38,628 nt of DNA, from positions 1 to 38,628 of IMG/VR virus record IMGVR_UViG_2711768037_000009; one strand, 5' to 3'. A program made the position numbers and the translations under genes. Source of the stretch: a virus. Taxonomy: Duplodnaviria > Heunggongvirae > Uroviricota > Caudoviricetes. This document shows, one piece after another, positions 2,982-38,628 of this stretch. The stretch's first letter is position 1. Each line of letters begins with the position of its first letter. The notes under the pieces were generated by a model. It ran no database searches. It saw only the letters and a program-made list of their open reading frames with translations, and had not been told where the DNA came from.

Positions 2982-3311
2982 ATGTTTGCAAATATCGACA
3001 TCAACCAAATTAAGAAATTGACTCAAAAAGAGTTTGACCAGTTTTATGAGCTGGAAGGTTGGTCTTCCACTCTGATTAATTCAAGATGGGTGCTGGAGCT
3101 GATGACTCGTGATGATGCACCTGCTTTGATGATTAGCGACCTGGGTGATGATGCTGACTTTATGGATATGAGCGAATTTTGTGTGGACACATACAACCGC
3201 AGCCAGAAGTACTACTTCACATGCGATAGCGAAAATGACGTGATTTCTAAGGTCTATCTTCACCTCGTCCAGCATTGGGACGTTCAGGAGTTTCTTGAGG
3301 TATTCGCGTAA
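2982..3311 (+). CDS. Small acidic protein (110 aa), function unknown
   Basis: ORF track 2964..3311; ATG at residue 7 preceded by AAGGA; about 21 Asp+Glu against 8 Lys+Arg. Confidence 0.6.
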   Translation: MFANIDINQIKKLTQKEFDQFYELEGWSSTLINSRWVLELMTRDDAPALMISDLGDDADFMDMSEFCVDTYNRSQKYYFTCDSENDVISKVYLHLVQHWDVQEFLEVFA

Positions 3312-3441
3312 CCCCAACCAAAGCCAGCATTGCTGGCTTAATTTCATCTGTAGCCGCAGGGAAGAACCTGCATATCGCTCATGCGCCTGATCAATATGCT
3401 TTGTAGCCGTTTTCTTACTGGTATTATTTACGCAATTGAGA

Positions 3442-3454
3442 AAACAAGTTATTT
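3442..3454. promoter_or_regulatory. AAACA-AGT-TATTT motif (one mismatch) upstream of the 3466 gene
   Basis: AAACA-N3-TGTTT family member overlapping the 5' leader. Confidence 0.3.
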
Positions 3455-3465
3455 ACGAGGTTGTG

Positions 3466-3777
3466 ATGGATAAGTCACTGATACTGGGGCTGGACAAAGA
3501 CCAGAAGAGAAAAGAGAAGCCTGCACTGGTTGCTCAATTAACTTTGCTGGACATCGTTGCCAATGGAACCTCTATTCGTCTGTTCCGTGAAACAGCGGTG
3601 TCTTTCGATAAAAACACTTTTACTCGTTATGTAATGAATGTTCGTCGCCAGCGTGGAAAAGGCTGGATGGCATTTCAAAGAATGTGGCCGGAACATCAGC
3701 TGGAACTGGCTTTGATGGAAGTAAACCGCGTGGCCCAGCAAGAAATTCAGAGAGCATCAGTGATGGCAATAGCCTGA
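3466..3777 (+). CDS. Hypothetical protein (103 aa)
   Basis: ORF track 3436..3777; ATG at 3466 preceded by GAGG. Confidence 0.6.
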   Translation: MDKSLILGLDKDQKRKEKPALVAQLTLLDIVANGTSIRLFRETAVSFDKNTFTRYVMNVRRQRGKGWMAFQRMWPEHQLELALMEVNRVAQQEIQRASVMAIA

Positions 3778-28600: not shown

Positions 28601-30258
28601 CCCAACGATCAGCTAATGCCTCGCAGCGTGCGGCCAAGAAAGAACAGGCAGCGCAACAGAAACTGGCAGCCGGATACCAGAAGGCTCTGGACAAAGCCGA
28701 TCAGCTTATGGGGCAAATGGGTGAAAGCTCTAAGGCTACGGTATCGTTTGATCAGTCTCTTCGCGATACAACGAAATCGCTGACAGATTTGGCTAATGCG
28801 GTTCCTAACGAGTTCATCACTCAAGAGATGATCGACAAGGCGAAAAAACGTCTTGAAGACCTCAAAAATGCGACACCTGAATATCGCGAGATGTTTAATC
28901 GCCGCAATGTTGAGCAGATGATCTCCTCTTGGGCACCGGAGGCGGATTCCATTATTAGTGCTGGCTATACGCCGTCTCGTGAAGAGAAAGTTGCTGATTT
29001 CGAAGACACTTACAACCGCAATCTCAAAGCGTTGATAGAACTTCGTGATGAGGCGTCTGATCCTAAAGTCGTGGCGCTTTATACAAAGAAAATCAATCAA
29101 CTTATTGCTGCTGGCAATACCGCACTTATTAAAGAGACTGGTACTGCGACGCAGAAGTTGGCACTGGAATACGAAAACCTGGCAGAGCAGATCGAAAGCA
29201 CCTGGACTGATTTGTTTAGTGGCTTAACTGATGTCCTGACTGATTTCGTTATTAACGGGAAGATGAGCTTCTCCAGCCTGTCTCAGTCCATTTTGAAAGA
29301 TATCACCAATATGGTCGTGAAGTCGCAGATCACGCTGCCTCTAATGAACATGTTGGGGATGGGAACTACCGCAGCTGGTAGTTCACAGAGTGGTAATTTC
29401 CTAACCGGGGTTGCCAATCAAGGTGTGCGCATAAGCAACACTGTTAATGGCGACAAGTCGGTAGGAGAAGCCACGAAGGAGACGTCCAGTTCGGTAACTG
29501 GATTGGGGCAAACGACACAGCAGACCACCAGCGCAATTGGCACAGCAACAAATGCGATTGGTAGCTGGGTATCAGGGCTATTTGATAGCACCGAAGCCAA
29601 AGATGCCGAGACAAAAGCAGTGAAGGATTCCATCTTCTCGATGCAGAACCTCAGCTCTGTTACCGGCGCGCTGTCTGCCGCTTTTGCAATGCTTGGGGCT
29701 AATGCTTCAGGCTCAGGTAATAAGTGGTTAAATTTTGGCGCGACAGTTGCGTCTGGTTTGGTGTCTGTGTGGGCTGGTGGCGGATTCGATGGATTGATGT
29801 CTGGTGCTTCTGGTTCATCTTCTGGATTCAATAATCTTACTGGCCTTGCTGCTGATGGCACGAAAGGCATTCCAGCAATTCCGAAGTTTGCAAATGGTGG
29901 CATATTCGGAAAAGACGGCGTGATCCCGCTCCGGGCATACCAGAAAGGCGGTATTGCTAACTCGCCTCAATTAGCGTTGTTTGGGGAAGGTTCTATGAAT
30001 GAGGCGTATGTTCCATTGCCTGATGGCCGAACAATCCCTGTAACGCTCAGTACCGATGGTATGAGTGGAGGCGGAAATGTTCTTTCTCCTGTATCAATTG
30101 AGATCAACGTCCATAGTGACGGTAGCACAACTGAATCCGGCGATACAGAAAGCATATGGAACAATGCCGCTCAACGGATGAAAGCAATCGCGCTTGAGAC
30201 TATCGCTCAAGAGAAACGTCCTGGCGGATCACTCAACCCAAACACTCAACGTAACTAA
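25687..30258 (+). CDS. Tail tape measure protein (~1524 aa)
   Basis: ORF track 25666..30258; first ATG at 25687; very long, coiled-coil and Gly/Ala/Ser-rich. Confidence 0.85.
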   Translation: MSQNVEFILSLEDKQFTASIDRAGKLLTRFGEQVTKPAQKIQTFERSLGSVARIIGVLESKLDSTADKLQDVAVGFELASDATRKMRGNITSLNSGLKALIERVDTTTSSVGKLTASLRKVQSELNDFSDWATYASKSANRFGTEVKEASASVSGMNTRLNTTTKRLSNWGVTTSQAAEGLKKVREQMDEVIGRQQLISKPVRVRTSGSGDGGSGSGQRSGASGHNGKNNEGGMFSGLRGNIFLLGEIGDAARTVTDIMFGWQKPIVEAAAEMERMRVMLRGLNKEKSNPGQAAADDMKYIVDMAQNAPFAMQALTDSFVKFRSAGLDPTDGSLKALVDSVARFGGDSELLKRASIAIQQMSGKGVVSMEELRQQLGEAVPNAMQAMADAAGITMGELTKAVASGTVEAKHALSLMFVGLRAENENAAKDMMQTYTGSLAQLQTSFTLFADRVGQAGYLDSLSKGMKELASIMNSAEGISFANSLGSGLTTAIDGLRQLAQWLAKNQELVINLGKVVAAMVAFKLMRAGIMGVVGAGSQMVSTFATMATAIQTPFNLGATAVTRFNRAARMGLAPIPSLIFAIRGAITGLKGAFAGLTAFIAANPIGAAFTVATVAVAGLITYMTMLRSETSKVVDEIRKIPEAMTAAKRAQMAEYKARLEQQITQKEQELKSGEKVVYGPGMAGTTVKINQDEHKRIENELNDLRKKRDKTTGAIERGDIAVAKRLAKDAAESQIEKIREENRDFAATFAKARQEALEKIQKINDDDSLSDDEKNKLLAPLRETVNKSYLKPAQEWVDSLSSRKNAVEGQIATLNDQLEKAKKEGNTEQIKKLQGSIRGYQENLEVVAQELTQAEFERDNAAKTGKGVMSNQGTVLGLGTTDKAAQKALAQYMRNQMDSATYQRTLPDGTPMMDFEGKPIIGPKQLKTQLNLQKASSASSLEKMSDEERAAAIAALTKAREQDAAAAEKAAQRSANASQRAAKKEQAAQQKLAAGYQKALDKADQLMGQMGESSKATVSFDQSLRDTTKSLTDLANAVPNEFITQEMIDKAKKRLEDLKNATPEYREMFNRRNVEQMISSWAPEADSIISAGYTPSREEKVADFEDTYNRNLKALIELRDEASDPKVVALYTKKINQLIAAGNTALIKETGTATQKLALEYENLAEQIESTWTDLFSGLTDVLTDFVINGKMSFSSLSQSILKDITNMVVKSQITLPLMNMLGMGTTAAGSSQSGNFLTGVANQGVRISNTVNGDKSVGEATKETSSSVTGLGQTTQQTTSAIGTATNAIGSWVSGLFDSTEAKDAETKAVKDSIFSMQNLSSVTGALSAAFAMLGANASGSGNKWLNFGATVASGLVSVWAGGGFDGLMSGASGSSSGFNNLTGLAADGTKGIPAIPKFANGGIFGKDGVIPLRAYQKGGIANSPQLALFGEGSMNEAYVPLPDGRTIPVTLSTDGMSGGGNVLSPVSIEINVHSDGSTTESGDTESIWNNAAQRMKAIALETIAQEKRPGGSLNPNTQRN

Positions 30259-30299
30259 CTATAGACGGCCCCAACGGGGCAGTCTCACAAGGATGTGAG

Positions 30300-30635
30300 A
30301 TGGAAAGACTGACTTTTAATTGGTATCCAGATTACGAATCTGAAAAAAGCGTAAAACCGAATGTAACGGTACTTAATTTTGGTGATGACTACGAGCAGCG
30401 ACAGGCTCAAGGTCTTAATCGCATTAAGGAAGAGTGGTCGTTAACTTTTAGCAGACAATACAACGAAATTAATGCCATTGATGATTTTTTGACTGATCGA
30501 GCTGGTGTTGAGTCATTCTATTGGGTAAACCCACGAGGTAAACGGATAGTGGTTGTGTGTGACAGCCATATGGTCAAACGCTATCAAGGTTACTGCGTGT
30601 TAACTGCTACATTCAGACAAGTGTTTGAGGTTTAA
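30300..30635 (+). CDS. Minor tail protein, lambda gpM-like (111 aa)
   Basis: Shares remembered gpM landmarks (FGDDY..Q...GLN, FYW, VVC, F.QV) at similar size. Confidence 0.8.
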   Translation: MERLTFNWYPDYESEKSVKPNVTVLNFGDDYEQRQAQGLNRIKEEWSLTFSRQYNEINAIDDFLTDRAGVESFYWVNPRGKRIVVVCDSHMVKRYQGYCVLTATFRQVFEV

Positions 30636-30669
30636 GTGTCTGGATAAGTAAATGCTAATTTACTATCAT

Positions 30670-30705
30670 GATGGTGATGGTGATGGTGATGGTGATGGTG
30701 ATGGT
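30670..30705. repeat. Hexanucleotide microsatellite (GATGGT)x6 in the M-L intergenic region
   Basis: Six perfect tandem units ~35 nt upstream of the L-like ATG. Confidence 0.8.
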
Positions 30706-30740
30706 GTCCTGCCAGCACCACTTATTTCAAGGATGAAACA

Positions 30741-31439
30741 ATGGGAATTAAAGCTGATATTCAGAGCTTATCTCCCTCTGCACTCATTGAGTTGTTCGAA
30801 CTGGATATGTCGAATACAACTTCAGGAGGGAAACTATTCTTCCACGCCGGAACAAACGAACTTATTCAGCCGGTCGTCTGGCAAGGAGTTACATATGAGC
30901 CGTGGCCAATCAAAGCATCAGGCTTTGACAAAACGGGCCAGGGGACGTTGCCACGTCCAAAAATTCAGGTATCGAACTTTGCCGGAACCGTCTCTGCGGA
31001 AGTTCAGGCAAACGACGATCTTGTTGGCTGTCGCATTATTCGCAAGATGACTCTGGCTCGCTTCCTCGATTCCGTTAATTTTAAAGATGGCAACCCAACA
31101 GCAGATCCAAACCAGCACTTCCCGGATGAAATGTGGTTTATCGAACAGAAAACACTCGAAACGCATCAGGTTGTCGAGTTTGAGTTGTCCAGTGTGTTCG
31201 ATTTGATGGGGGTGCAACTGCCGTATCGTCAGATCATTAAAAACACCTGCCCGTGGAAATACCGAGGGCCAGAATGCGGCTATACCGGTCCATATTTCGA
31301 CAAAAATAACCAGCAGACGTCTATGTCTGGTGCGGATTACTGCACAAAACGTTATGACGCCTGTAATGCACGTCGGAATTATTTTGCCGACGGTGTGATC
31401 CATTTTGGCGGATTTATTGGAGCTACGCGGTATGGGTAA
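30741..31439 (+). CDS. Minor tail protein, lambda gpL-like (232 aa)
   Basis: VSN...RFLD.VNF, NTC.W.YRG.ECGY.GP and C-terminal Cys cluster resemble the gpL Fe-S region. Confidence 0.85.
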   Translation: MGIKADIQSLSPSALIELFELDMSNTTSGGKLFFHAGTNELIQPVVWQGVTYEPWPIKASGFDKTGQGTLPRPKIQVSNFAGTVSAEVQANDDLVGCRIIRKMTLARFLDSVNFKDGNPTADPNQHFPDEMWFIEQKTLETHQVVEFELSSVFDLMGVQLPYRQIIKNTCPWKYRGPECGYTGPYFDKNNQQTSMSGADYCTKRYDACNARRNYFADGVIHFGGFIGATRYG

Positions 31440-32229
31440 TAAAGCAATCCCTGAGCTTGGCTCTGACGTTATGCAGCAAATCTATCTCTGCGCCATAAAT
31501 CGCTACCCTAATGAAGCGTGTGGCTTTCTGGTTAGAACTAATGGCGACAAATATCGCTTTATGGAAGCGCGGAATGTTTCGGAGAACCCGCAGAACACTT
31601 TTGTAATGCACGTTGACGACATTATGGCGGCAGAGGATGCGGGTGATGTTATCGCAATCTGGCATTCACATACAGATGAATCAGCAGAAGCATCTGATGC
31701 CGATCGTGCAGGCTGCGAAGCGACGGAAGTTCCGTGGATGATTCTGGCTATTCGCAAGAATGTTGAGGGAGATGCCCCTTTCCATTTTAGCGAGATGAAT
31801 GTGATCACACCTGATGGTTTCGAAATGCCATACCTGGGTAGACCGTATGTATTTGGCGTATTCGATTGCTGGATGTTGTGTCGGGACTATTTGAAGCGTG
31901 AGTTTAACGTCGAGCTTAACCCGAACGCACACCTGCATATTCCATCGTGGTACACCGGCGATAACGACATTCTCGACCAGAACTACCGAAACGAAGGATT
32001 GGTACGGCTTGCGCCTGGAACAGAGCCTCAACGTGGGGACGTCTTCTTTATTCAATACGGGAAAATGCCAGATCACTGCGCGGTTTATATCGGCGATGGA
32101 ATGATTCTTCATCACCAGATCGACCGTCTTAGTTGTCGTGCTTATTACGGCGGAATGTATCAGAAACATACGACGCATCACTTGCGTCACAGAGACTTGC
32201 TCAAGGGAGATGAGACGTGTCTGAGTTAG
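31432..32229 (+). CDS. Tail assembly protein, lambda gpK-like (MPN/JAMM + NlpC/P60 domains)
   Basis: ORF track 31405..32229; ATG at 31432 overlaps the L stop; JAMM motif HSHTDESAEASDAD; Cys/His NlpC/P60-like C-terminal half. Confidence 0.8.
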   Translation: MGNKAIPELGSDVMQQIYLCAINRYPNEACGFLVRTNGDKYRFMEARNVSENPQNTFVMHVDDIMAAEDAGDVIAIWHSHTDESAEASDADRAGCEATEVPWMILAIRKNVEGDAPFHFSEMNVITPDGFEMPYLGRPYVFGVFDCWMLCRDYLKREFNVELNPNAHLHIPSWYTGDNDILDQNYRNEGLVRLAPGTEPQRGDVFFIQYGKMPDHCAVYIGDGMILHHQIDRLSCRAYYGGMYQKHTTHHLRHRDLLKGDETCLS

Positions 32230-32807
32230 TTCATGTGCAGCTTGGCGGACCTATGGCCAAACATTTTGGCCGCCACTGGCATCTAAAGGTGCGCAATACA
32301 AAACAGGCTCTGGATTTAATTGAGGCCAACAAGCCTGGTTTTAAAGCATGGATGAAGCGCAATATCAAAACCTATGACAGATACCACATCCAGATCACCA
32401 ATAAACAGGGCCACAAGTGGTCTGTGGACGAGAGTGAATATCAGATGATGGGGCAGTCTGACAACATTGCCAAAATCCGCATTACACCTGTTCCGCGAGG
32501 AAGCGGTGGATCTGCTTTTGGGTGGTTTCAGACGGTTGTTGGAGCAGTATTAATGGTTGCCTCGATATGGGTGCCCGCTCTTGCGCCTCTCGGTTTGTCA
32601 CTGATGATGGGCGGTATAGCGCAAATCATATCTCCACAAGCCACTAACGAAAGTGTGAGACAGGCTGATAATTCGAACTCTTTTTACTTTGATGGGCCTC
32701 AAAATACAACAAACCAGGGCAACCCTGTACAGCTTATCTATGGCGAGGAAATTTTAGTTGGCTCGCAAGTTGTAAGTTCTTCTATCACCATCGATCAGCT
32801 TATGTAA
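32217..32807 (+). CDS. Tail assembly protein, lambda gpI-like (196 aa)
   Basis: GTG start after AGGGAG; hydrophobic Gly-rich central segment and C-terminal YGEEILVGSQVVS resemble gpI. Confidence 0.7.
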   Translation: MSELVHVQLGGPMAKHFGRHWHLKVRNTKQALDLIEANKPGFKAWMKRNIKTYDRYHIQITNKQGHKWSVDESEYQMMGQSDNIAKIRITPVPRGSGGSAFGWFQTVVGAVLMVASIWVPALAPLGLSLMMGGIAQIISPQATNESVRQADNSNSFYFDGPQNTTNQGNPVQLIYGEEILVGSQVVSSSITIDQLM

Positions 32808-32823
32808 TCAAGGATTTTTGGAC

Positions 32824-35800
32824 ATGGAACAGTTCAAGAAGAAAAAGTTACCTCTATTAATTGCAGGTTCAGGTGGCAAAAAAAGTAGCAAAAGCTCTAG
32901 TCGCACACCAGTTGAAGCAGACGATACCGTAAATTCTCGTGCTATGGCCTCTATTCTCGATCTTCTTGGTGAAGGCGTAATTGGCGGCCTGGTAAATGGC
33001 GCAAGATCTATTTTTGTCGACGATTTGCCCATAGTAAATGAAGACGGCTCTTCAAACTTTAGCGGAATTTCATGGGATTTTCGAGACGGCTCACAAGACC
33101 AGACACCAATGTCTGGCTTTGATTTCGTCGAAACACCTAAATCGATCAATATCCAACTAAAGAAATCTCATTATGTGACGGTTTCAATAGATAACGATGA
33201 GGCCGATCGCGTTCGAGTCATCATGAAGTTCCCTTCTCTGCGAAGAATAGACCAAAAAACGGGTGATACGAACGGCACTACCGTTGAGTATAAGTTCCAG
33301 ATCTCAAATGGAGATTCGACATTTGTAGATGTGGTTGCAGAAGGTGAAAAAAACGTTGGTATTAAGTTAACAGCGAAGAAAACAGGTGTTTATTATCGTA
33401 GTTATGAGCTGAAGTTACCCAAGCCAGGTCGGGCATACAGTATTCGAGTAGTTCGTATTACTGATGATAACAACGGTCAGTATCTTTATAACGATACATG
33501 GGTGGACTCAATTGGTGAGATCGTTGATACACCGATGAACTACCCAAACTCTGCGTTGGTGGGACTGAAGGTTAATTCTGAGCAGTTTGGCGGCTCTATG
33601 CCTTCTCGTTCCTATCTGGTGCGGGGATTAAAAATTCGCGTACCATCAAACTACAACGAGGCTAGCAACACTTATGATGGCGTATGGGATGGCTCTTTTA
33701 AGCCGTTGTCTTCTTCAAACCCTGCGTGGATTCTCTTCGACTTGCTTACCAATTCTCGATATGGGCTTGGTCAGTATGTGTCGGAATCTATGATTGATCT
33801 CGGCCAACTGTACCAGATCGGTCGATATTGTGACGAAGAGGTTGATGATGGCTTTGGTGGTAAAGAGAAACGCTTTGCAATCAATACGCAGATCACCAGT
33901 CGACAAGACGCATACCGATTAATTCAGGATATTGCCGGTGCATTCCGCGGCATGGTGTTTTGGGCTGGTGGCATGGTTAATATCATGCAGGATAGCCCGT
34001 CAGATCCGGTAATGATGTTTACTAACTCCAACGTCAAAGATGGATTGTTTACATATAAGGGGTCTGCGCGTAAAGATCGCCCATCCGTTGCGCTCGTAAC
34101 CTACAACAACAAGGAGGACGGTTATAAGCAAAACATCGAGTATGTTGAAGATCAGGACGCAATGCGCCGTTATGGTGAGCGTAAAACAGAAGTCGTAGCA
34201 TTTGGATGTACGAGCCGAGGCCAGGCTCACCGAGTTGGTTTGTGGCTGTTGTATACCGCCAGAATGGAGTCGGATGTAATTACATTTACTGCTGGCTTAG
34301 ACGCGTCATTTCTGATGCCTGGTGAAACCGTTCTGATTCAGAACAAATATCGTGCAGGCAAACGTAACTCCGGTCGAATTGTGGAGTTTACCAAAAATAG
34401 CATCACTCTCGATGCGCCTGTGTCGTTAGCTAAAAGCGGCAGCTTTATTCGGATATTGAATCAGAAAGGCAAAATCGTTGAACGCGATGTTCTTGAAACT
34501 GGCGAAAACATAACAAAGGTTACGTTTTCAAAAGCCCTGTCGTCGGCGGAAACGCCAGTTTTGAACGGTGTCTGGACAATTACAGAACCAGATCTCGAAC
34601 CTATGCGCGTTCGCATCGTTAACATCGCGCAGGGGGAAACGCCGGGTAGCTTTGACATCACCGCTGTTGAGAACAATCCGTCTAAATATGAGGCGATCGA
34701 CAATGGTGCAACGCTTATCCCGCAAAATACGACGGTATTGGACCCGACTTACTCCAAGCCGTCTAATTTGCAAATCACCGAAGGGACTTATCTCTCAAGC
34801 CCTGGCAATCTGTCAGTAAAACTGACTGCAACATGGGAAGGGAAATCTCCAGTGTATTGGATCAGTTGGCGACGTTCTGATGAAAACAATGTATCGAACT
34901 GGCAATCGGCGCGTGTAACCGAAGAGCAATACGAAATCGTTAATGTTGCAGAGAATGGACGTTACGACTTCCAGTTGTATGCGGTTTCATTCAACGGTAA
35001 AAAAACAGAGATTATCAGTACCGTTTATCAGGTGCTGGGTACAATGACGCCGCCTGATGCGCCCATGTCATTAACGGCAGTTGGGGACTATCGTAATGTG
35101 ATACTGAATTGGGTCAATCCAGATTCGGTAGACCTTGATCACATTAATGTTTACGCATCCCAGACCAACAATCTGGATACAGCGAAACTGATCGCAGAGT
35201 CAGCGAGTACAACCTTTACACATGCTGGTCTTGGTGATAACGAAACTTGGTATTACTGGGTTAGATCAGCAAATAAGCGTGGCATGTTGAGTCGTCCAAA
35301 CTCAAATCTTGGTACAGAGGCCACAACGCGAGATGTTCTTTCATTTTTAGCCAATAAAATTACCTCGTCAGAACTTGGCCAGGCTTTAAATGAGGAAATT
35401 GACAGTAAGGCTTCTCAACAAGCTGTTGATGAAATCAATAATCATATCGTTCAGAGCGTTGAATCTCTGGAAGGTGAAATTTCCGCATTAAATAAGGAGC
35501 TAATGAGTAGTATCGATGAGTTTAAAACATCGTTTACTGAACGCAGCGATACACTGGAGAATGCGCAAAGCGAGCTTAGGACGGAAGTTTCTAGCACTCG
35601 GGAAAAAGTAGATGATGCATTACAACAGGTTGAAAATTCAAATGCAGCACTTATTGAACTACGCAATACAGTATCAGAACAAGGTGATTCTGTTGCAGGT
35701 GTCGTAGAAGCAGCAAATGCGGCACTTGAAAATGCATCATCTTTAATTGCCGAAGAGCGTGAAGCTCGTGCACAAGCAGAACTGGCGAATGCTAAAAAGA

Positions 35801-37431
35801 TAGAAACGATAAAATCATCGGTTGATGAAAGTGTTGCGGCTGTAGAAGAAATGCAGAGAACAGTTGCTGAGGTAGGAAGAGTAAGTTCAGAAATCACAAC
35901 TAATCTTGAAGCAATTTCTAAGACAAATATCGATCTTGCGTTGCGGCAGGACGAAGATCAGCACAGACAGCTGGTAAATAACGCGAAAATTGCAACGACT
36001 CAAAAGATTCTTGTCGATGATGTGTCCGCAATGGCATCTAAGGTTGAAGAGATACGAGCCGAGATTGGTGACAACATTCGAGCATCTATTCTCGAAGAAA
36101 CGACAGCAAGAACCGACGCTGACAATGCGTTAGCCAGTAGCATGACACAATTACAGAGTAAATTTGAAAATGATATTAGTGCTGCTATAAGGTCAGAACA
36201 ATCCACTAGGGCATCAGCGAATGAAGCGCTTTCAACTCAAATTACTCAACTGGAATCTAAAGTCAATACAGATCTTTCCACTGCAATTAGAGAAGAGCGA
36301 CAAACAAGAGTCACTCAAAATGAAGCGTTATCAAGACAAATCAATCAATTGCAGGTAAAAATGGATGATGACATATCCGCTGCTATTAATGAGGAAAGAG
36401 AAGCCAGAGCATCAGGCGATAGTGCGCTATCAAGAGAAGTTAGTAGTTTAAAAACAAAAACAGGTAAAGACATTGCAGCGGCAGTAGCAGTTGAAACCAA
36501 AGCAAGAATTGACGCTAATGATGCATTATCCAGACAAATATCCTCGCTTACTACAAGGGCCAATGAGCTTGAGTCCTCGATAGAGCGAGAATCGACATCT
36601 CGTACAAGTCAGGATTCTGCCATTGCAAAAGACTTGACGAGTTTTAAAACAAAAACTGCTAAGGATATAAGTGCAGCTGTTGCGGTAGAAACCCAGGCAA
36701 GAACTGACGCTGATACCGCATTGACGTCGCAGATTAACTCACTAAAGACGCAAACTGGTAAAGATATAAAGGCTGCTGTGGCAGAAGAGACAAAAGCAAG
36801 AACTGATGCTGATGCGGCGCTTGCGACAAGAGTAACTAATCTCCAGTCGCAAACAACAAATGATATCAATGCAGCGATTACGTCAGAGTCAAAGGCCAGA
36901 ACAAGTGCAGACAACGCTCTAGGAAAACGAATTGATACACTGAAAGCGTCTGTAGATGGAAATGTTGCCGTTATTCAACAGCAGGCTTCTGCTATAGCTG
37001 ACGCAAATAGAAAAGTATCCACCTCGTACACATTGAAGATGGAAACTTCAACGAGTGGAGGGCAGAAGTATGTAGCGGGCATTGCGCTTGGTATTGATAC
37101 AGCGGGGCTTTCTCAGTTTTTGGTGCGGGCAGATCGATTTGGTTTGGTCAACAATGTTAATGGGAAGATCACAACGCCATTTGTTATCGAAAACAGCATT
37201 GCATATATGAACGGTGCTTATATCAAAGATGGCACTATCACAAACGCAAAGGTAGGTGACTTGCAATCAACAAACTTCGTAAGCGGACGAGCCGGATGGA
37301 GATTTGGCAAAAACGGAACGCTTGAGATTAACGGTAACAGTGGCGGAAATGGGAGATTAGTTATCAATGGGCAGAGGATCGACGTTTACGATGACAATAA
37401 TGTACTCCGGGTAAGAATTGGTCGGCTTTGA
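32824..37431 (+). CDS. Tail tip / host-specificity protein, lambda gpJ-like (~1535 aa) with C-terminal tandem-repeat coiled-coil region
   Basis: ORF track 32818..37431; ATG at 32824 after AAGGA; N-terminal half shares gpJ landmarks (RGLKIRVPSNY...WDGSFKP...PAWILFDLLTNSRYGLG...YCDE). Confidence 0.85.
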   Translation: MEQFKKKKLPLLIAGSGGKKSSKSSSRTPVEADDTVNSRAMASILDLLGEGVIGGLVNGARSIFVDDLPIVNEDGSSNFSGISWDFRDGSQDQTPMSGFDFVETPKSINIQLKKSHYVTVSIDNDEADRVRVIMKFPSLRRIDQKTGDTNGTTVEYKFQISNGDSTFVDVVAEGEKNVGIKLTAKKTGVYYRSYELKLPKPGRAYSIRVVRITDDNNGQYLYNDTWVDSIGEIVDTPMNYPNSALVGLKVNSEQFGGSMPSRSYLVRGLKIRVPSNYNEASNTYDGVWDGSFKPLSSSNPAWILFDLLTNSRYGLGQYVSESMIDLGQLYQIGRYCDEEVDDGFGGKEKRFAINTQITSRQDAYRLIQDIAGAFRGMVFWAGGMVNIMQDSPSDPVMMFTNSNVKDGLFTYKGSARKDRPSVALVTYNNKEDGYKQNIEYVEDQDAMRRYGERKTEVVAFGCTSRGQAHRVGLWLLYTARMESDVITFTAGLDASFLMPGETVLIQNKYRAGKRNSGRIVEFTKNSITLDAPVSLAKSGSFIRILNQKGKIVERDVLETGENITKVTFSKALSSAETPVLNGVWTITEPDLEPMRVRIVNIAQGETPGSFDITAVENNPSKYEAIDNGATLIPQNTTVLDPTYSKPSNLQITEGTYLSSPGNLSVKLTATWEGKSPVYWISWRRSDENNVSNWQSARVTEEQYEIVNVAENGRYDFQLYAVSFNGKKTEIISTVYQVLGTMTPPDAPMSLTAVGDYRNVILNWVNPDSVDLDHINVYASQTNNLDTAKLIAESASTTFTHAGLGDNETWYYWVRSANKRGMLSRPNSNLGTEATTRDVLSFLANKITSSELGQALNEEIDSKASQQAVDEINNHIVQSVESLEGEISALNKELMSSIDEFKTSFTERSDTLENAQSELRTEVSSTREKVDDALQQVENSNAALIELRNTVSEQGDSVAGVVEAANAALENASSLIAEEREARAQAELANAKKIETIKSSVDESVAAVEEMQRTVAEVGRVSSEITTNLEAISKTNIDLALRQDEDQHRQLVNNAKIATTQKILVDDVSAMASKVEEIRAEIGDNIRASILEETTARTDADNALASSMTQLQSKFENDISAAIRSEQSTRASANEALSTQITQLESKVNTDLSTAIREERQTRVTQNEALSRQINQLQVKMDDDISAAINEEREARASGDSALSREVSSLKTKTGKDIAAAVAVETKARIDANDALSRQISSLTTRANELESSIERESTSRTSQDSAIAKDLTSFKTKTAKDISAAVAVETQARTDADTALTSQINSLKTQTGKDIKAAVAEETKARTDADAALATRVTNLQSQTTNDINAAITSESKARTSADNALGKRIDTLKASVDGNVAVIQQQASAIADANRKVSTSYTLKMETSTSGGQKYVAGIALGIDTAGLSQFLVRADRFGLVNNVNGKITTPFVIENSIAYMNGAYIKDGTITNAKVGDLQSTNFVSGRAGWRFGKNGTLEINGNSGGNGRLVINGQRIDVYDDNNVLRVRIGRL
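36050..36960 (+). repeat. Tandem ~99-bp coding repeats (33-residue units, ~8-9 copies) inside the J-like gene
   Basis: Units such as DISAAIRSEQSTRASANEALSTQITQLESKVNT and DISAAVAVETQARTDADTALTSQINSLKTQTGK; coordinates approximate. Confidence 0.7.
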
Positions 37432-37525
37432 TTATGGAAAAAAATATTTTCATCGATAATAATAAGTAGCTACATACTTAACTGTGGGCGAGGATAGCCC
37501 ACCTTATTAAAGGAGCAGATTCAAC

Positions 37526-38628
37526 ATGTGGTACAGGGAAGGTACTATCACATTTACACAAGGCAGCAATACTCTGGTTGGTGCTGGGACAGCATGGAAC
37601 GTTACGGCCAATGGTGTGTTGCCTGGCATGATTGTCGTCGCACCTGATAATAAATTGTATGAAATTAAAAGCGTAACAAATGACACAACCTTAACGTTGG
37701 TTGAAAACTATACTGGTGAAACGCAAAGTAATATCCCATGTAGGATCATAACTACATACGAAGGAGATTTGACTCAGTTTAGTGCTCGATTTACTGCGCT
37801 TTTATCGAGAATGGCCGGTGATGCTAAAACTGTGCGTAATTGGCTAACGGCTGTAGATGAAATAACACTTGAGCGTGAAGATGGTACAAGTATTAATGTT
37901 AAACCTCTTGCGAAGATTATTGATGAGCATAATAAGCACGTAGAATGGTACGAAAATAATACGAATGTAATCGATGAAGCCAACACCAGAGTAAAGCAAG
38001 CTGCGGCAAGTGCTGCGGCAAGTGAAGAACTTGCCGCAGAGATTCTATTGCGAGCAGAGAATGCGACAACACGAGCAGAAGAGGCTGTATCAAGAGCTGC
38101 GACAGCATACGGGCCACAGGGACCAAAGGGCGATCGAGGAGAGAAAGGCGATAAAGGCGAGCAGGGGATTCAGGGCAAGACTGGTCCACAAGGGCCACGT
38201 GGTCTTCAGGGGGATACTGGTCCTGTTGGACCTCGTGGAGTTCCAGGACCTCAAGGGGAAATAGGCCCTCGTGGAGAAACTGGACCAAGAGGAGAAAAAG
38301 GTGATCCTGGTGGTCCACAGGGACCAAAGGGTGACACAGGACCAAGAGGGGAACAAGGACCTCAAGGCCCAAGAGGAGCTACTGGAGAGAGGGGACCACA
38401 GGGTTCCCGAGGACCGGCAGGTAGCGCCGGTCCAAAAGGGGAAAAAGGCGATCCAGGATCACAGGGTCCGAAAGGTGAAACGGGAGCAACAGGCCCAGCT
38501 GGTCCGCGGGGAGCGCAGGGACCGAAAGGGGAGAAAGGAGACCCCGGTCCCAGAGGTGAGCGTGGAGAAACCGGGCCGATGGGGCCAAAGGGCGAGAGAG
38601 GCGAGAGAGGCGAGAGAGGGGCGCAGGG
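37526..38628 (+). CDS. Tail fibre protein with collagen-like Gly-X-Y repeats; 3' end beyond window
   Basis: AAGGAG SD 10 nt upstream of ATG; open to the window edge; uninterrupted Gly-X-Y triplets from ~38100 (GPQGPKGDRGEKGDKGEQG...). Confidence 0.75.
   Translation, partial: MWYREGTITFTQGSNTLVGAGTAWNVTANGVLPGMIVVAPDNKLYEIKSVTNDTTLTLVENYTGETQSNIPCRIITTYEGDLTQFSARFTALLSRMAGDAKTVRNWLTAVDEITLEREDGTSINVKPLAKIIDEHNKHVEWYENNTNVIDEANTRVKQAAASAAASEELAAEILLRAENATTRAEEAVSRAATAYGPQGPKGDRGEKGDKGEQGIQGKTGPQGPRGLQGDTGPVGPRGVPGPQGEIGPRGETGPRGEKGDPGGPQGPKGDTGPRGEQGPQGPRGATGERGPQGSRGPAGSAGPKGEKGDPGSQGPKGETGATGPAGPRGAQGPKGEKGDPGPRGERGETGPMGPKGERGERGERGAQ

Follow-up and report, generated by a model that had tools for sequence, protein, structure and literature searches.

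The shaft of the F7 pyocin central fiber switches from a coiled coil to a β-prism on cell contact (He et al. 2026 preprint, PMC12874032). Glutamine substitutions at buried small residues of this shaft (A987, A995 and others) abolish killing and leave assembly unaffected, and the motif SxSxxMxxLxS recurs in each strand in that strand's own orientation, with a Glu or Asp at the M position pairing with an Arg at i±4. The same preprint predicts the switch for 21 of 24 siphophage central fiber proteins. Cryo-electron microscopy (cryo-EM) revealed that residues ~907-1085 of the pyocin central fiber form a three-stranded coiled coil, to which the side fibers of the F2 and F7 pyocins bind at a kink at Gly955 that carries an acidic patch (three 2026 papers). 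In phage lambda, residues 841-861 of the AHS of gpJ turn into β-strands upon LamB binding (PMC11101478), and in phage T1 residues 821-1172 of gp33 were not resolved by cryo-EM (PMC11945409). Here we analyzed a 38,628-nucleotide caudovirus sequence (IMG/VR record IMGVR_UViG_2711768037_000009, hereafter the window), whose J-like central fiber protein (hereafter J) carries nine tandem 33-residue units homologous to the pyocin shaft. From the sequence of these units and by analogy with the pyocin, we hold it probable, though with moderate confidence, that they form an expanded, modular coiled-coil shaft that switches its fold.

The features of J are as follows (amino acids are given as aa).

32824..37431, plus strand: gene of the J-like central fiber or tail tip protein, 1535 aa plus stop
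32824..35400, plus strand: hub domains and two fibronectin type III (FNIII) domains (aa 1-859), which run collinear with residues 3-834 of lambda gpJ
35401..36066, plus strand: non-periodic heptad-type helical shaft (aa 860-1081), from its hydrophobic period and a helix predicted by AlphaFold2 (AF2)
35929..36009, plus strand: near-invariant patch TNIDLALRQDEDQHRQLVNNAKIATTQK (aa ~1036-1062), conserved in 12/12 SSU5-family J proteins aligned
36067..36954, plus strand: nine tandem 33-aa units (aa 1082-1377), from a lag-33 peak, a unit hidden Markov model (HMM), motif hits and AF2 helix; units start at 36067, 36166, 36265, 36364, 36463, 36562, 36658, 36757 and 36856
36406..36423, plus strand: predicted break of the helix in unit 4, at RASGDS (aa 1195-1200, Gly1198), from both AF2 models
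36955..37056, plus strand: stretch past unit 9, 33 aa plus one linker residue (aa 1378-1411), in register and predicted to be β
36973..37374, plus strand: PF09327 domain (formerly DUF1983), the central straight fiber, from Pfam, Foldseek and phmmer

The repeat had to be established on the protein, since Tandem Repeats Finder (TRF) run over 30000-38628 reported no tandem repeat in the array. Self-comparison of aa 1080-1400 showed a sharp maximum at a lag of 33 residues (mean BLOSUM62 score 1.72, 38% identity) and further peaks at 66 and 98/99; the 230 aa preceding the array lack such a peak. The unit HMM scored 46-55 bits for each of the nine units, which follow the consensus DISAAI..E..AR.DAD.AL....L; unit 6 has 32 aa and the other eight have 33. 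Nine core positions per unit (4, 8, 11, 15, 18, 22, 26, 29 and 33) make up three hendecads, and each unit has an invariant, buried Glu11-Arg15 pair. The within-unit hydrophobicity has both an α component of period 3.65 and a β component of period 2.05, with powers of 116 and 124 against 58±13 in shuffled sequences; they correspond to harmonics 9 and 16 of the 33-aa unit, and each is about twice the shuffled maximum. A first-pass annotation, made from the sequence without database searches, had placed an array of 8-9 tandem 33-residue repeats at 36050-36960 in a J protein ~400 residues longer than lambda gpJ. Both statements are borne out, as the nine units at 36067-36954 contain the consensus quoted there, and J exceeds gpJ by 403 residues (1535 against 1132 aa). 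The extra length consists of ~500 aa between the second FNIII domain and the central straight fiber, offset by the absence of the distal ~190 aa of lambda gpJ, including its receptor-binding domain. The periodic part makes up 19% of J, not the C-terminal third that had been given for it, a fraction that corresponds to the helical shaft as a whole (aa ~860-1370).

At the DNA level the units are 45-72% identical (mean 54%), with a longest exact shared stretch of 11 nt, and a search for DNA repeats at the array found only families of 60-70% identity, spaced 99/195/198/396 nt. The ~99-bp DNA repeats described in the first-pass annotation thus hold as a 33-aa period of the protein and not as repeated DNA; the units are old at the DNA level. 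The array lacks the high identity of adjacent units that marks a variable tandem DNA repeat, while its copy number does differ between close relatives. Because the units are so diverged and independent assemblies agree on the count, collapse or expansion of repeats during assembly, which had been raised beforehand as a threat to the unit number, is excluded for practical purposes. Exact repeats of no more than 11 nt are far under read length, positions 35344-37428 are 100% identical at the nucleotide level in NZ_AP042587.1, and nine units are found in NZ_CP027369.1 and PhiR41_1 as well; we found no evidence in favor of such an artifact, whose likelihood is vanishingly small.

Search against the PDB by phmmer with the C-terminal 693 aa of J revealed matches to T1 gp33 (E 1e-32) and to the F2 pyocin tail fiber (E 1e-22), in which J aa ~1233-1507 align with residues 914-1193 of the F2 central fiber protein (CFP); lambda gpJ aligned over the β domain only. 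The unit HMM itself matches F2 residues 1034-1061 at 1.5e-8. All thirteen residues named in the pyocin papers, including A987, A995, V1010, A1017, A998, A1011, E1039, R1043, G955, L1050 and I1054, stand at their stated numbers in the F2 sequence taken from the alignment, so that the transfer of register to the units is sound. In this register, E1039 and R1043 of F2/F7 correspond to E11 and R15 of the unit, and L1050 and I1054 to L22 and I26. The SxSxxMxxLxS motif occurs in F2 in reverse at 1002 and 1034 and forward at 1017 and 1049, which gives a hairpin period of 32 aa. In the array it occurs in reverse at unit positions 6-16 and forward at positions 21-31, each in eight of the nine units, making 16 of the 18 copies expected, with a spacing of 15/18 compared to 15/17 in F2. 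Altogether the array has 20 motif matches, against 4.4±2.1 (maximum 11) in 2000 shuffles, and a density of 6.8 per 100 aa; the corresponding densities are 0.6-2.7 for the remainder of J and 1.8 for the tape measure protein.

Further analysis of the shaft upstream of the array (aa 860-1081) revealed a hydrophobicity period of 3.55 (power 174 against 64±16 in shuffles) and no internal repeat. Relatives show length differences of +7, -11, -18 and -22 aa in this segment compared to the window, each a sum of 7 and 11, as expected if the register of a coiled coil is kept. We predicted the structure of monomeric J by AF2 in two models, based on alignments of 86 and 63 sequences, the second of them made up of sequences from the window and from searches. 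Helices span aa 1051-1194 and 1201-1367 in model 1, which is β from aa 1372, and aa 863-1049, 1067-1190 and 1215-1365 in model 2; the predicted local distance difference test score (pLDDT) is ~80-90 in the shaft and ~85 across the array. Foldseek search with the monomer model matched the β domain alone, to the central tail fiber of lambda gpJ (8xcj/8xci, E 9e-8), and the long helices gave nothing useful. The helices, together with the homology to the F2/F7 shaft seen as a coiled coil by cryo-EM, agree with the long trimeric coiled-coil fiber put forward in the first-pass annotation, and we consider it very probable that the shaft is a coiled coil of helices within the virion. At 0.148 nm per residue, the whole shaft would measure ~77 nm as a helix.

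The tail of the relative Cyrano measures 259±12 nm, against ~230 nm expected from its tape measure protein (PMC9928086), and the tip plus central shaft may be part of this excess.

Conservation was assessed in 62 distinct units drawn from 11 relatives. Ala, Ser, Thr, Gly or Val occupies the six S positions in 98-100% of the units and a charged residue in 0%, the L positions are 100% hydrophobic (Ile, Leu or Val, with two Phe), and E11 and R15 are invariant (62/62), with Asp or Asn19 at i+4. Since the S positions would face the solvent in a plain coiled coil, we read their strict smallness as the best sign, at the level of sequence, of selection for a second conformation.

The main rival, which is the reading of the first-pass annotation, is a static spacer, that is, a rigid trimeric coiled coil that sets the projection of the tip, for example through O-antigen or capsule, with no change of fold. 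It is in line with the predicted helices and the coiled-coil periodicity of the array, with the resolved coiled coil of the pyocin homolog and with the register-keeping indels of the upstream shaft (+7, -11, -18 and -22 aa), and the tolerance of 4-10 units in the family is what would be expected if length alone mattered. However, it leaves unexplained both the six exposed positions that stay 98-100% small and uncharged in the 62 units and a motif orientation that alternates exactly as in the strands of the pyocin β-prism; moreover, killing by the pyocin depends on the switch of its homologous shaft (He et al. 2026, PMC12874032). We consider a static spacer a serious but doubtful alternative, and the function that the first-pass annotation missed is likely the one proposed below.

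In the fold-switching reading that we favor, the array would be the distal part of the α-helical shaft of a trimeric, lambda-J-like central fiber. We propose that, in the virion, the protein forms a parallel coiled coil of three chains with the PF09327 straight-fiber domain at the tip of the shaft, and that each 33-aa unit is one module of this metastable shaft, which would become a two-strand hairpin in the β state. The two motif copies of opposite orientation in each unit would then be successive antiparallel strands of a β-prism, as in F7/F2. Once the tip engages a receptor, β structure would spread upward from a permanently β seed. A candidate for this seed is the stretch past unit 9 (aa 1378-1411), which keeps the register of the array and is covered by predicted strands of model 1 (aa 1372-1377, 1380-1392 and 1398-1409); the unit HMM gives no match there and homology to the units could not be demonstrated. 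Its assignment as a possible β-prism seed follows the model and the pyocin, in which non-switching regions start with three β-prism strands (He et al. 2026 preprint, PMC12874032). As the β structure spreads, the array would collapse from ~44 nm as a helix (296 aa × 0.148 nm) to ~9 nm as 18 stacked strands, lengths that follow from geometry. The collapse would pull the tail tip to the membrane and free the FNIII closure, whereupon the tape measure protein and the DNA could exit, and the number of units, 4-10 in the phage-plasmid family, would set reach and stroke.

Several points weigh against a fold switch in J. Experimental evidence for the switch comes from a single system, described in a preprint (He et al. 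2026, PMC12874032) whose authors point out that an equally extensive switch is not seen in lambda and T5. The monomer AF2 models give the array as a helix and never as a β-prism. The period of 33 aa in the window is less common among relatives than one of 32 aa, which is the period of F2/F7, and in units 5 and 6 one motif position each is broken. The exposed positions could be kept small for another reason, for instance to let accessory fibers dock. Array indels in multiples of 33 aa, given below, would be expected from recombination in unit register anyway, and alone make no argument for a hairpin constraint. Finally, J stops directly past PF09327, with no obvious receptor-binding domain that could act as the trigger.

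To compare copy number within the family, we applied the HMM to J proteins from phage and plasmid records found by tblastn; the counts do not draw on a homolog search with the C-terminal 486 aa, which returned mostly truncated proteins and no full-length J. The counts are as follows.

4 units: S. Typhi plasmid LT904853; Buttiauxella plasmid
5 units: SSU5; pTB212
6 units: Y. pestis pMT1; E. hormaechei plasmid
9 units: the window; NZ_CP027369.1; PhiR41_1; CT01
10 units: CMS-2020a; Cyrano

In an alignment of 12 J proteins of the SSU5 family, all indels in the array are exact multiples of 33 aa (33, 66 and larger). The expectation of the first-pass annotation that fiber length varies between isolates is therefore supported, in steps of whole units.

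The J proteins of pTB212, the S. Typhi plasmid, pMT1, and the E. hormaechei and Buttiauxella plasmids, all with 4-6 units, have an extra C-terminal domain of 150-200 aa past PF09327. These domains are mutually divergent, which indicates that distal specificity modules have been swapped, and they are absent from the alleles with nine or ten units and from SSU5. The relation between shaft length and C-terminal module is not strict, in that SSU5 combines five units with the short ending. The J proteins of Klebsiella SSU5-like plasmids (e.g., MZ779062.1 55798-67935) have only aa 1-~950 in common with J of the window and then run on to 4045 aa without 33-aa units, so that the distal fiber of these plasmids is of a quite different build.

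How units are lost could be mapped in one recent case. Over the whole J gene, PhiR41_1 and CMS-2020a (SCU-175) differ by 16 substitutions and one 99-nt indel, which is bounded by an 11-nt microhomology, GCTGCTATTAA. As the extra unit of CMS-2020a is not a copy of its neighbors, the nine-unit form looks like a deletion. The best-fitting breakpoint of the J gene of the window lies 43 nt from that of PhiR41_1/CMS-2020a, and CT01 and Cyrano differ by one unit, another one than in PhiR41_1/CMS-2020a. These differing breakpoints and units make the loss of units seem recurrent among SSU5-like J genes. With exact matches of at most 11 nt, the copies have drifted too far apart at the DNA level to recombine by ordinary homology or to slip. 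The first-pass annotation had called the array recombination-prone, a description that the divergence of the copies speaks against and that finds weak support in the single mapped loss through microhomology.

A divergence hot-spot against PhiR41_1 and CMS-2020a lies at ~36120-36420 (J nt 3300-3600, units 1-4), with 43-53 mismatches per 300 nt compared to 4-20 in the rest of the J gene, and suggests mosaic exchange within the array.

Beyond the family, a full HMMER scan of 1.84 billion representative proteins gave 2967 matches at E <= 0.001. Unit statistics were taken from the best 150 of these 2967 matches, a sample biased to unit-rich proteins, in which the number of units ranges from 0 to 25 with a median of 8 in proteins of at least 1000 aa. 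Among these best 150, a J-like protein of 2138 aa has 21 contiguous units, and a spacing of 32 aa is commoner than 33. Judged by these matches, modular shafts of this kind are widespread, and the array of the window is of middling size among them and not very unusual. A broader generalization, which we put forward tentatively and rate below even chances, is that the fold-switching shaft of siphophage central fibers is made of quantal hairpin modules of 32/33 aa, whose freely evolving copy number (4-10 in SSU5-like phage-plasmids and up to ~21 contiguous units elsewhere) would tune reach, stroke length and the energy stored in the infection trigger.

The shaft has two further elements that bear on the binding of accessory proteins. 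The patch TNIDLALRQDEDQHRQLVNNAKIATTQK, near-invariant within a shaft that varies around it, has an acidic center and partly overlaps a helix break of low pLDDT at aa 1050-1066 in AF2 model 2, a region that is helical in model 1. By its likeness to the acidic kink of the F-pyocins, it may be a docking site for side fibers. The second is the predicted break RASGDS in unit 4, at which pLDDT falls below 50 and the helix is interrupted, over aa 1195-1200 in model 1 and over aa 1191-1214 in model 2; ARASGD is retained in every allele of nine or ten units. According to the models, this break could be a hinge or an artifact of folding a monomer, and the analogy between Gly1198 and the G955 kink of the F2 pyocin is a candidate likeness. 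The units might alternatively be a ladder on which side fibers or accessory proteins dock, with the unit number setting how many are carried. Side-fiber binding at the acidic Gly kink of the F2/F7 pyocin shaft, the reproducible predicted break at Gly1198 and a collagen-like fiber gene after J all speak for such a ladder, but in the pyocin one short segment and not each repeat binds fibers, and the best docking candidate in J is the near-invariant patch at aa 1036-1062, outside the repeat. We regard a docking ladder as improbable.

The fiber gene after J lies at 37526-38628 and runs off the end of the window. It encodes an N-terminal domain of ~190 aa and, after it, a long run of collagen Gly-X-Y repeats (Pfam Collagen, 7.6e-29), and TRF matches of 9 nt at 38129-38160 and 38591-38619 are its GDK/GER triplets. 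The same position is annotated as side tail fiber genes in PhiR41_1, and the annotation of NZ_CP027369.1 has a collagen-like protein downstream of J.

The identity of J is supported by its domains and its neighbors. The open reading frame (ORF) is open from 32818, and the 1535 aa are counted from 32824, the ATG used by annotated homologs; PHROGs calls it "central tail fiber J". Pfam assigned FNIII-A_GpJ to aa 102-236 (2.8e-29), Phage-tail_3 to aa 358-521 (1e-34) and PF09327 (Phage_Tail_Tip) to aa 1384-1517 (E 6.5e-40), and an fn3 match at aa 645-728 falls below the Pfam cut-off. Matches to ApoLp-III and betaPIX_CC, also under their cut-offs, were dismissed as generic amphipathic-helix matches. 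In phmmer searches against the PDB, the N-terminal part of J matched the F2 pyocin fiber (1e-131, aa 18-772), lambda gpJ (8iyk, E 2e-116, J aa 19-858 against chain residues 3-834) and T1 gp33 (3e-106), and the PF09327 region matched T1 gp33 984-1168 and lambda gpJ 825-942. No lambda-type receptor-binding domain was found in J, as the alignment to gpJ ends at residue 942 of 1132 and the C terminus of J lies only 18 aa beyond PF09327. Upstream of J are M-, L-, K- and I-like genes, encoding Phage_min_tail, Phage_tail_L and a JAB plus NlpC/P60 protein by Pfam, in addition to an I-like ORF with no Pfam match; the homologs are annotated M, L, K, I and J in the same order. J thus takes the position expected of the lambda gpJ/TipJ family, after the tape measure gene and the homologs of M, L, K and I.

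J is 96.7% identical to the "tail tip host specificity protein J" of PhiR41_1, 72% to J of SSU5, and 99.7% at the amino acid level to the ortholog on E. coli plasmid NZ_CP027369.1. By these identities the window is an SSU5-like E. coli phage-plasmid. Of 5426 complete E. coli genomes, 165 contain SSU5-like phage-plasmids, in each case on a plasmid.

A perfect (TGATGG)x6 microsatellite lies at 30669-30706, between the M-like and L-like tail genes. It has three copies in NZ_CP027369.1 and none in PhiR41_1, SSU5, pMT1 and others, which have a GC-rich inverted repeat, GGCGCTGACAGGATGTCAGCGCC, in its stead. This locus, in contrast to the J array, is a genuine tandem repeat of DNA with variable copy number.

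The word "repeat" is absent from the main text of He et al., and the pyocin papers considered here do not call the region a repeat array. What may be new here is the description of the switching region as a repeat of variable copy number, together with a natural series of 4-10 units in SSU5-like phage-plasmids. If the array acts like its pyocin homolog, nature offers tail tips that are otherwise alike but have shafts of 4, 5, 6, 9 and 10 modules, a series that would suit the study of shaft length against host reach, and of the energetics of tail opening in non-contractile phages. Y. pestis pMT1 and S. Typhi plasmids are among the relatives, and phage-plasmids of this SSU5-like kind are common in E. 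coli. For annotators, the featureless stretch between FNIII and DUF1983 in "phage tail protein" entries gains a concrete reading.

Comparison with known systems places J close in design to the F2 (PA0641, PDB 25vf) and F7 pyocin CFPs (He et al. 2026, PMC12874032). They share the hub, two FNIII domains, a helical shaft and a PF09327-type β domain, in addition to a SxSxxMxxLxS motif of alternating orientation and a Glu-Arg i/i+4 pair at matching positions. They differ in the extent of the array: the switching coiled coil of the pyocin spans 163 aa, with about five hairpin periods of ~32 aa and four clean motif copies by scan, whereas J has nine clean 33-aa units, preceded by ~220 aa of heptad-type helix. 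In addition, J is a phage protein on a phage-plasmid and the pyocin is a tailocin, and the downstream fiber genes differ, being collagen-like in the window.

T1 gp33 (PDB 9l9p, PMC11945409), the best PDB sequence match to the C-terminal part of J (E 1e-32), has 33-aa repeats of its own (REVIATETEALSREIDQLKAQIGDDIQASLTDI) and the same C-terminal ending, ...LRVQIGRL, but is 1172 aa long with far fewer units. Lambda gpJ (PDB 8iyk and 8xci/8xcj, PMC11101478) has a collinear hub and FNIII domains and the PF09327 central straight fiber in common with J, aligned over J aa 19-858 (gpJ 3-834) and then aa ~1364-1479 (gpJ 825-942). Its α-helical shaft is short, ~50 aa compared to ~510 aa in J, and it continues for a further ~190 aa of fiber plus an Ig-like LamB-binding domain, both absent from J of the window. 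SSU5 gp020, Cyrano CYRAN_20, pMT1 YPA_RS21790 and the protein encoded by S. Typhi LT904853 are orthologs of J in the same gene order, and are built of the same type of unit in 5, 10, 6 and 4 copies, respectively.

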